From the NCBI GenBank assembly GCA_964016885.1, contig CAXHJY010000540.1, positions 1 through 61,893 on the forward strand: a stretch of DNA of 61,893 nt, given 5' to 3'. Below, in pieces: positions 46,993 to 47,183 of this stretch; position 1 is the stretch's first letter; the number at the start of each line of letters is the position of its first letter. Position numbers and translations under genes: made by a program. Under the pieces are notes generated by a model. The model ran no database searches and was not told the DNA's origin. It saw only the letters and a program-made list of their open reading frames with translations. The DNA is from Eledone cirrhosa. Its lineage: Eukaryota.

Positions 46993-47183
46993 AACGAAGG
47001 AAGTGTGGTAAGGAATCAGGTGGACCATAACGCACCAGAGTACTCAATACTTTGGGTAGTAGAGTGGGTAATAGGGAAAAGTTTAACCCCGACGGCAGAG
47101 CTCAAGCCGTTTCGACGGCTATTTCAGTCCAGAAATAGCCGTCGAAACGGCTTGAGCTCTGCCGTCGGGGGTTAAACTTTCCA
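46993..47183. mobile_element. Hairpin element copy B (tail on the left)
   Basis: Tail acgaaggaagtgtggtaagg...gtgggtaatag, then a perfect palindrome ccccgacggcagagctcaagccgtttcgacggctatttc-agtcca-gaaatagccgtcgaaacggcttgagctctgccgtcgggg; within (TA)n. Confidence 0.8.

Follow-up and report, generated by a model that had tools for sequence, protein, structure and literature searches.

Four short tailed palindromes in TA repeats, probably ORF-less ends of Hydra-type Penelope-like elements joined head-to-head, with one flipped loop

Four tailed palindromes in TA repeats

The window, that is, the whole 61,893-nt stretch of DNA that was analysed, is microsatellite-rich animal DNA (265 tandem-repeat rows), possibly of an octopus to judge by its repeat types, and contains four copies, here A to D, of a short element in which a palindrome of 94-111 nt is flanked on just one side by a unique tail. 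The tail (44-80 nt) lies outside the inverted repeat in all four copies, and the copies are mutually 88-92% identical over their shared length (n = 4). When copy B was used as the BLASTN query, D was recovered at 90% identity and A and C at 88% each (E-values of 1e-48 or better), no fifth copy was found in the window at E ≤ 1, and a single 19-nt match was returned at position 19282 (E 0.11). The features are as follows, with strands that for copy B refer to the sense of a Penelope-like element (PLE).

Copy A, 9836-10026, + strand: outer arm 9837-9888, loop 9889-9894, inner arm 9895-9946 (palindrome 9837-9946, 52-nt arms), tail hairpin 9955-9980
Copy B, entire insertion, 46994-47184, PLE sense on the minus strand: made up of a short inverted arm, the loop, an arm in direct orientation, and the tail; palindrome 47078-47180 with a 39-nt perfect core at 47087-47170
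Copy B, outer (tail-less) arm, 47132-47184, + strand: inverted second copy of the same end, ending 18 nt past a putative cleavage triplet (47164-47166)
Copy B, loop, 47126-47131, - strand: reads TGGACT toward the tail, i.e., the flipped isomer
Copy B, inner arm, 47075-47125, - strand: putative hammerhead 3' half, with the stem II 3' strand, GAAA (47113-47110), a 5-bp stem III, a putative GTC triplet (47093-47091), and then the stem I 3' strand
Copy B, tail hairpin, 47040-47065, - strand: motif RCTC-stem-loop-TN-GAGY-RC, shared with Hydra-type PLE ends
Copy B, terminal 36 nt, 46994-47029, - strand: present in A, B, and D, not in C; putatively the optional PLE "tail" between two reverse transcriptase (RT) start sites
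Copy C, 49271-49418, - strand: short tail, tail hairpin 49283-49308, loop 49369-49374, short outer arm 49375-49418; palindrome 49325-49418 (94 nt, 44-nt arms)
Copy D, 49628-49820, + strand: outer arm 49629-49679, loop 49680-49688, inner arm 49689-49739 (palindrome 49629-49739), tail hairpin 49749-49774

An earlier note on this DNA had placed four palindromes with tails in TA repeat here, with neither an ORF nor a visible TSD, and all of this was re-found: (TA)n borders A, B, and D on both sides (for B, the runs at 46972-46993 and 47185-47206) and C on its tail side, the right flank of C being a short TA run followed by (TG)n; none of the four copies has an ORF, and a TSD is not definable inside (TA)n. 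The dimensions given there (~190 bp, with a ~100-110-nt palindrome and a ~80-nt tail) fit A, B, and D but not C, the tail of which is 36 nt shorter than the tails of the other three, and the loop of 6-9 nt shrinks to 7 nt in D if its outer T and A pair, as they are able to. The palindromes had also been called GC-rich, yet the elements have a GC content of 47-51%. Folded as DNA, copy B reaches -69.8 kcal/mol (z -16.3), a value matched by none of 200 shuffles. CpG decay is heaviest in copy A, and copy C carries subfamily variants that are mirrored across both of its arms. ARAGORN found no tRNA in the window, which leaves a tRNA-derived SINE head without support, and the exact arm pattern gave no match in a scan of prokaryotic genome contigs.

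Other repeats and fold-back structures are present in the window as well. A SINE-like repeat of more than 20 copies (55173-55373, 54907-55041, and 23710-24333), which may resemble octopus tRNA-derived SINEs, also forms fold-back palindromes and inverted tandem arrays. A 641-nt palindrome of another family, 94% self-complementary, occupies 31101-31741 and has a related direct copy at ~57370-57484; small isolated hairpins with 27- and 23-nt arms sit beside TA runs at 20041-20111 and 15176-15230; and a weak zf-RVT match (E 5e-4, below the cut-off) marks a C-terminal fragment of a non-LTR retrotransposon at 7717-8430.

Neighbouring insertions, putative hammerhead halves and the tail hairpin

Other families of the same build adjoin these copies (E and G1, which the earlier note had missed), together with two more PLE-type features:

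E, 49050-49262, - strand: comparator of another family, 137-nt palindrome, tail hairpin 49097-49118
F, 48077-48133: tail of the E family
G1, 50911-51212, - strand: comparator of another family, 210-nt palindrome, 42-nt spacer, tail hairpin 50972-50993
H, 50140-50890: comparator of another family, inverted hammerhead end (core 50334, - strand)

E and G1 share the plan of tail plus palindrome, and their arms are unrelated to those of A-D. Both arms of E hold a decayed full hammerhead core (E 0.011 and 0.21 with the covariance model R1, described below), and in G1 a complete hammerhead (core 51114, + strand) spans the spacer into the tail-less arm; the R1 matches to G1 and H are weak. Insertion into TA repeats has a local hot spot from 46994 to 51212, where 4.2 kb contain at least seven insertions of PLE type (B, F, E, C, D, H, and G1), some of them parted by a short TA run only.

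The hammerhead end of H stands head-to-head with a frameshifted Hydra-type RT ORF fragment (~50405-50890, + strand), which spans approximately residues 70-240 of its relatives, is cut off by (TA)n and G1, and matches 11 of 110 candidate proteins at 45-57% identity. The four full-length relatives that were inspected have RWK/RWR, DKT, and a C-terminal nuclease region, features by which PMC8557442 characterises the Hydra clade, together with hammerheads of canonical type and insertion into (TA)n. An assignment of H to Naiad was considered and rejected, since RWK, DKT, and the C-terminal nuclease region of the relatives point to Hydra; at the cut-offs used, Pfam recognised neither the H fragment nor seven homologues as RT. 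H is the only Hydra-type ORF fragment in the window and lies 320 nt from copy D. Because H has no DNA similarity to A-D, however, it shows the kind of element rather than the parent, and no ORF of A-D's own family was seen in the window.

For comparison outside the window, seven loci (L001-L007) were fetched from genome contigs with an alignment of six H-related proteins. These loci are filed as bacterial, yet they carry (TA)n, Hydra-type PLE ORFs, and hammerheads, and they are probably host animal DNA that was mis-binned in bacterial assemblies. In L003, two short palindromes (6085-6301 and 6774-7119) lie in (TA)n, each made of hammerheads placed head-to-head and with a tail on one side, which is the plan of A-D with the cores kept. 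Further, L001 is a 3.7-kb head-to-head inversion, and L002 has one 66-nt end sequence both before and after its ORF.

Toward the tail, each arm of A-D begins with 12 nt that complement the strand across the loop; GAAA comes next, then a stem of 5-6 bp whose loop is palindromic, then GTC, and finally a G run. This order would correspond to the stem II 3' strand, core, stem III, cleavage triplet, and stem I 3' strand of a hammerhead, and we read each arm as the putative 3' half of a type I hammerhead ribozyme because order, spacing, and neighbours fit. Stem III, 5-6 bp long and closing on GTC, is found in five of the eight arms (shuffle P 0.0065-0.08), and it is broken by CpG-type changes in the other three (P 0.2-0.48). 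Upstream of the tail hairpin, GAAA lies at a distance of 48 nt in A-D, of 52 nt in E, and of 67 nt in G1; for five external ends that have complete hammerheads, the distance is 60-71 nt. The CUGANGA 5' core is missing from all four copies, and R1, which was built from eight external hammerheads only with an imperfect alignment in three of the eight rows, gave 25 matches at E ≤ 10, none of them in A-D. Rfam gave no match in the window at the gathering threshold and, in an E-value scan of 46900-51500, 67 matches that were all under the gathering score and mostly miRNA hairpins; no hammerhead family was reported even at G1 and H, and hence Rfam is blind to these motifs. A relaxed descriptor returned 11 candidate type I hammerheads in the window, a count without shuffle control that includes the hammerheads of G1 and H (50334) and a doubtful match inside a tandem repeat at 3335.

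Candidate and complete hammerheads are also seen elsewhere in the window. Beside copy A, 9179-9822 is an inverted-repeat PLE end with two 153-nt arms that are 100% identical and a 340-nt spacer; its left arm has a complete hammerhead (core 9336, - strand; the best R1 match, E 7e-5) with CCAAT- and TATA-like boxes upstream, and its right arm, preceded by (GTT)n, begins within the core. A second G-family copy at 18250-18500 (- strand) has a complete hammerhead and a different 3' continuation, with a 14-nt unit repeated in tandem about six times downstream of the hammerhead. More dispersed families of short repeats that have candidate type I hammerheads and end in TA or CA repeats occupy 15228-15394 and 54708-54882; 18001-18221, 57083-57303, and 14181-14332; 39001-39042; and 40943-41032; they are likely other PLE remnants.

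The tail hairpin motif matches the window seven times, in A-D, E, and G1 and at 15074, compared to 0.05 per shuffle in 60 shuffles and none in 30 block shuffles, and seven matches in five of the seven external Hydra loci, compared to 0.03 by chance, in a shuffle test that is not blind in that the motif was defined after both sequence sets had been seen. The same scan gave no match in L001, L002, F, or H. The outer pair, which the motif leaves free, is Watson-Crick in 14 of 15 matches (8 G-C and 6 A-T, the latter form being that of A-D), and this exchange looks like a compensatory swap. By eye, the motif stands 3' of the hammerhead in two of the six Hydra consensus 3' ends in PMC8557442 File S7; in L004 and L006, it is found shortly upstream of where the ORF starts, as expected of a PLE tail. 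Because the motif is shared with Hydra ends and found upstream of ORF starts, the tail of A-D would seem to be where a Hydra-type element ends and continues into the 5' UTR of the unit that follows. The 36-nt difference between C and the other copies, with one short copy only, falls within the published 30-40-nt range of tails, and the optional PLE tail has been traced to two RT start sites (PMC11167929). An 11-nt tail core, with one mismatch allowed, has six matches versus 3.1 expected (9 of 100 shuffles reach six), a count that is not significant alone; all six are exact and inside elements, and the core is absent, in either orientation, from the available PMC8557442 supplement. The arm plus tail of C folds into an alternative structure (z 0.76). 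At 14990-15130, the motif (15074-15096, G-C form) follows a lone CTGATGA, with no GAAA half.

Loop orientation and the joining of the two arms

From the tail outward, the loop sequence is TGGACT for both A and C, TGGACACTA for D, and AGTCCA for B, just as the earlier note had read it. That is, B alone, one copy in four, is flipped, and a flip unique to B is what that note had named as speaking against its own reading. The junction looks identical in all four copies, and the outer arms of A, B, and D end at +18. Copy B has the most perfect arms (39/39 in the core), free of CpG decay, and two small indels in homopolymer runs of its outer arm. The true pairing of inner with outer arms has the lowest non-CpG distance of the 24 pairings (6 vs. 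8-20), where distances come from pairwise alignment, the floor p is 1/24, and the result is mainly driven by C. Accordingly distributed are the non-CpG variants found in both arms of one copy (four in C, one in A, one in B), and the arm alignment of A-D holds no variant that separates all inner from all outer arms. Such co-variation would equally result from arm-to-arm gene conversion. With regard to other families, the arm that the spacer goes with is the tail-bearing one for E, as judged by eye from stem I pairing, and for L003 6085-6301, by comparison with L006, whereas it is the tail-less one for G1 (core in the spacer, as confirmed by the second copy at 18452) and for H; L003 6774-7119 (60-nt spacer), which has an ambiguous orientation, was left out of this count.

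We conclude that A-D are very probably ends of a PLE. Our main reading, to which we give a probability of roughly 0.7, is that they are ORF-less Hydra-type PLE insertions in which two 5'-truncated 3'-end copies lie head-to-head in (TA)n. The inverted 5'-truncated copy typical of PLEs has its counterpart in an outer arm that is the inverted inner arm in all four copies. The single ORF of the Hydra clade (RT with RWK and DKT, plus, C-terminally, GIY-YIG without CCHH) is not present in A-D, and since they have no ORF, they are to be called truncated derivatives rather than autonomous members. Hence, the suggestion in the earlier note of a non-autonomous element with a Penelope-like fold-back is retained and sharpened, and its rolling-hairpin part is not.

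Regarding the mechanism, an RT/GIY-YIG protein of an autonomous partner, located outside the window, would insert A-D into (TA)n. PMC11167929 describes nicking and extension of both strands of the target by a PLE protein that begins reverse transcription at two or more internal sites and that is predicted to be a dimer. A nick on one side would prime cDNA from the distal start site, giving tail plus arm, and a nick on the other side would prime cDNA from the proximal site, giving the arm only; both cDNAs would run into the self-complementary hammerhead stem II, where annealing of their 3' ends and fill-in may follow. In that case, the 12-bp stem at the centre and its loop would be the native stem II and loop 2 and, with stem II as the central stem, the junction would look identical in every copy and the 5' core would always be lost; this is the simplest account of the fixed junction. 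The loop would face whichever cDNA crossed it, producing flip or flop without hairpin transfer, and the spacer of a head-to-head pair belongs to the copy that reaches further 5'. Since both spacer orientations occur in elements of other families, flip/flop most likely records which of the two cDNAs crossed the loop, and arms that co-vary within copies fit the annealing of two cDNAs. That the flip in B itself came about by two-primer joining at stem II is, in our estimate, an even bet. The fuller proposal, in which a dimeric PLE protein rebuilds the palindrome at each insertion from two cDNAs annealed via stem II, with the loop in either orientation, so that A-D would represent a minimal non-autonomous family, is offered tentatively.

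Alternatively, and with the same PLE origin, the loop of B may have turned round once the copy was in place, through recombination between the near-perfect arms or through a switch of template from one arm to the other during replication. Flip-flop small inversions at plastome hairpins are well known, B is the only flipped copy of the four, and its perfect arms, lacking CpG decay, would both favour and result from arm exchange. However, intact CpGs may just mean that B is a young copy, and both orientations are encountered in other families (E, G1, H, and L003), which have spacers of at most 42 nt or an ORF fragment in between, as head-to-head joining would predict; the latter argument is weak, since those elements could also have flipped later. 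On balance, we regard a later inversion as unlikely, if well worth keeping in mind. We see less of a case for single-strand snap-back or self-priming at stem II, possibly followed by re-transcription of a short palindromic master, even if the fixed junction (4/4) and the shared +18 end are in line with it, the geometry of B is that of a tail-primed cDNA folded back on itself, and junction palindromes are read as self-priming in PMC3846280. One such route would give one isomer, with a second template or a second step needed for the other, and a palindromic master would pass on arm-specific variants, none of which is common to the copies.

It is improbable that the flipped loop is an assembly or polishing error, although B, the most perfect palindrome, lies in long TA runs where read mapping is ambiguous and has the two homopolymer indels in its outer arm. 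The copy-specific and CpG-type arm mismatches of A, C, and D argue that the palindromes are real, and opposite geometries are known in other families and on unrelated contigs. Lastly, a rolling-hairpin/HUH element (with a parvovirus-like terminus, or Helitron/Replitron-like) or a TIR-only MITE with a captured tail is very improbable. Hairpin transfer, from which the flip/flop isomers of parvoviruses arise, is classically recognised by a terminal hairpin that exists as two loop isomers, and TA is a target of Tc1/mariner too. The loop isomers are, however, all that speaks for hairpin transfer here, and the parvoviral comparison drawn in the earlier note is not supported, given the single palindrome of each copy, the other end being a tail that runs into (TA)n instead of a second terminus, and the occurrence of both orientations in other PLE inversions. 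In addition, no Rep, HUH, or transposase was found when 114 of the 391 window ORFs of ≥60 aa were compared with Pfam (the other ORFs being low-complexity), a scan with two matches, zf-RVT and DUF4131, both below the cut-off. Tail and arm both agree with features of PLE ends, and against a MITE, the tail lies outside the palindrome with no inverted repeats at both element ends, and the join between tail and arm keeps its register throughout the four copies, as a chance flank would not. Equal numbers of flip and flop, expected of a rolling hairpin, are predicted by the two-primer PLE model too, and here the ratio is 1/4 in few copies.

Relation to known elements and implications

The published elements most like A-D are the Hydra clade PLEs (PMC8557442, Craig et al. 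2021), which include Hydra-1_Obim of Octopus bimaculoides and which target (TA)n, with inverted 5'-truncated copies at the 5' end of insertions and a tail at one end; Hydra-2_Amil and Hydra-2_Ajap have the tail hairpin motif of A-D. Hydra elements have a type I hammerhead near the 3' end, whereas A-D have only its putative 3' half and no ORF; stem III of A-D (5-6 bp with a 7-9-nt loop) is longer than in File S2 of that study, and A-D, whose junction is fixed at one point, match none of its six new Hydra consensus 3' ends. Pen2a_Av and Pen3a_Av of Adineta vaga (Penelope/Poseidon, PMC3846280) likewise have an inverted 5'-truncated copy at the 5' end and a palindrome at the head-to-head junction, for which self-priming was suggested, as well as an optional one-end tail and solo pLTR structures moved in trans. 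Unlike A-D, Penelope/Poseidon pLTRs are ~180-220 nt long, have a TSD, and usually flank an ORF, and the available portions of PMC3846280 make no mention of loop isomers at such inversions.

Pairs of minimal hammerheads on opposite strands in Schistosoma have been read as truncated PLEs (Cervera and De la Pena 2014, PMC4209133); these lie 100-700 bp apart with complete cores, whereas the halves of A-D abut and their cores are lost. The non-LTR retrozymes of animals are short non-coding PLE-derived repeats with type I hammerheads as well (bioRxiv 10.64898/2026.07.22.740005), but they are head-to-tail tandem units with complete ribozymes, whereas A-D are dispersed and inverted and cannot form a complete hammerhead. 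The terminal hairpins of parvovirus/AAV resemble A-D in having two reverse-complement loop isomers; A-D differ from them in lacking a second terminus, a Rep/NS1 gene, and a viral context. Consequently, the term "undescribed", used in the earlier note, applies at most to the family A-D and its fixed junction, given that the kind of element and its architecture are already published in PMC8557442 and PMC3846280. The literature searched, which excludes most subscription papers, had nothing on loop isomers of PLE inversions, the A-D family, or the Hydra tail hairpin, nor did it contain a case of an identical junction in all copies with both loop isomers.

How PLEs make inverted ends and complete the second strand is a question raised in both PMC8557442 and PMC11167929, and insertion in vitro does not require the PLE hammerhead. 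With a high-copy family whose junction is fixed and whose orientation is marked by 6 nt, the models would become separable by counting isomers: snap-back should give one isomer, two-primer annealing both, and later inversion a rare and age-dependent flip. If the flip turns out to be a one-off, A-D would be an ordinary PLE remnant. If, on the other hand, the palindromes are indeed rebuilt at each insertion, the flip/flop ratio would be a countable, genome-wide record of PLE strand joining, and the hammerhead would serve a structural purpose in addition to self-cleavage. In that case, the tail hairpin, which covaries, would be a binding or initiation signal of the Hydra RT; with its G-C/A-T swap, it is a compact candidate cis signal and may serve as a marker for ORF-less Hydra fragments.
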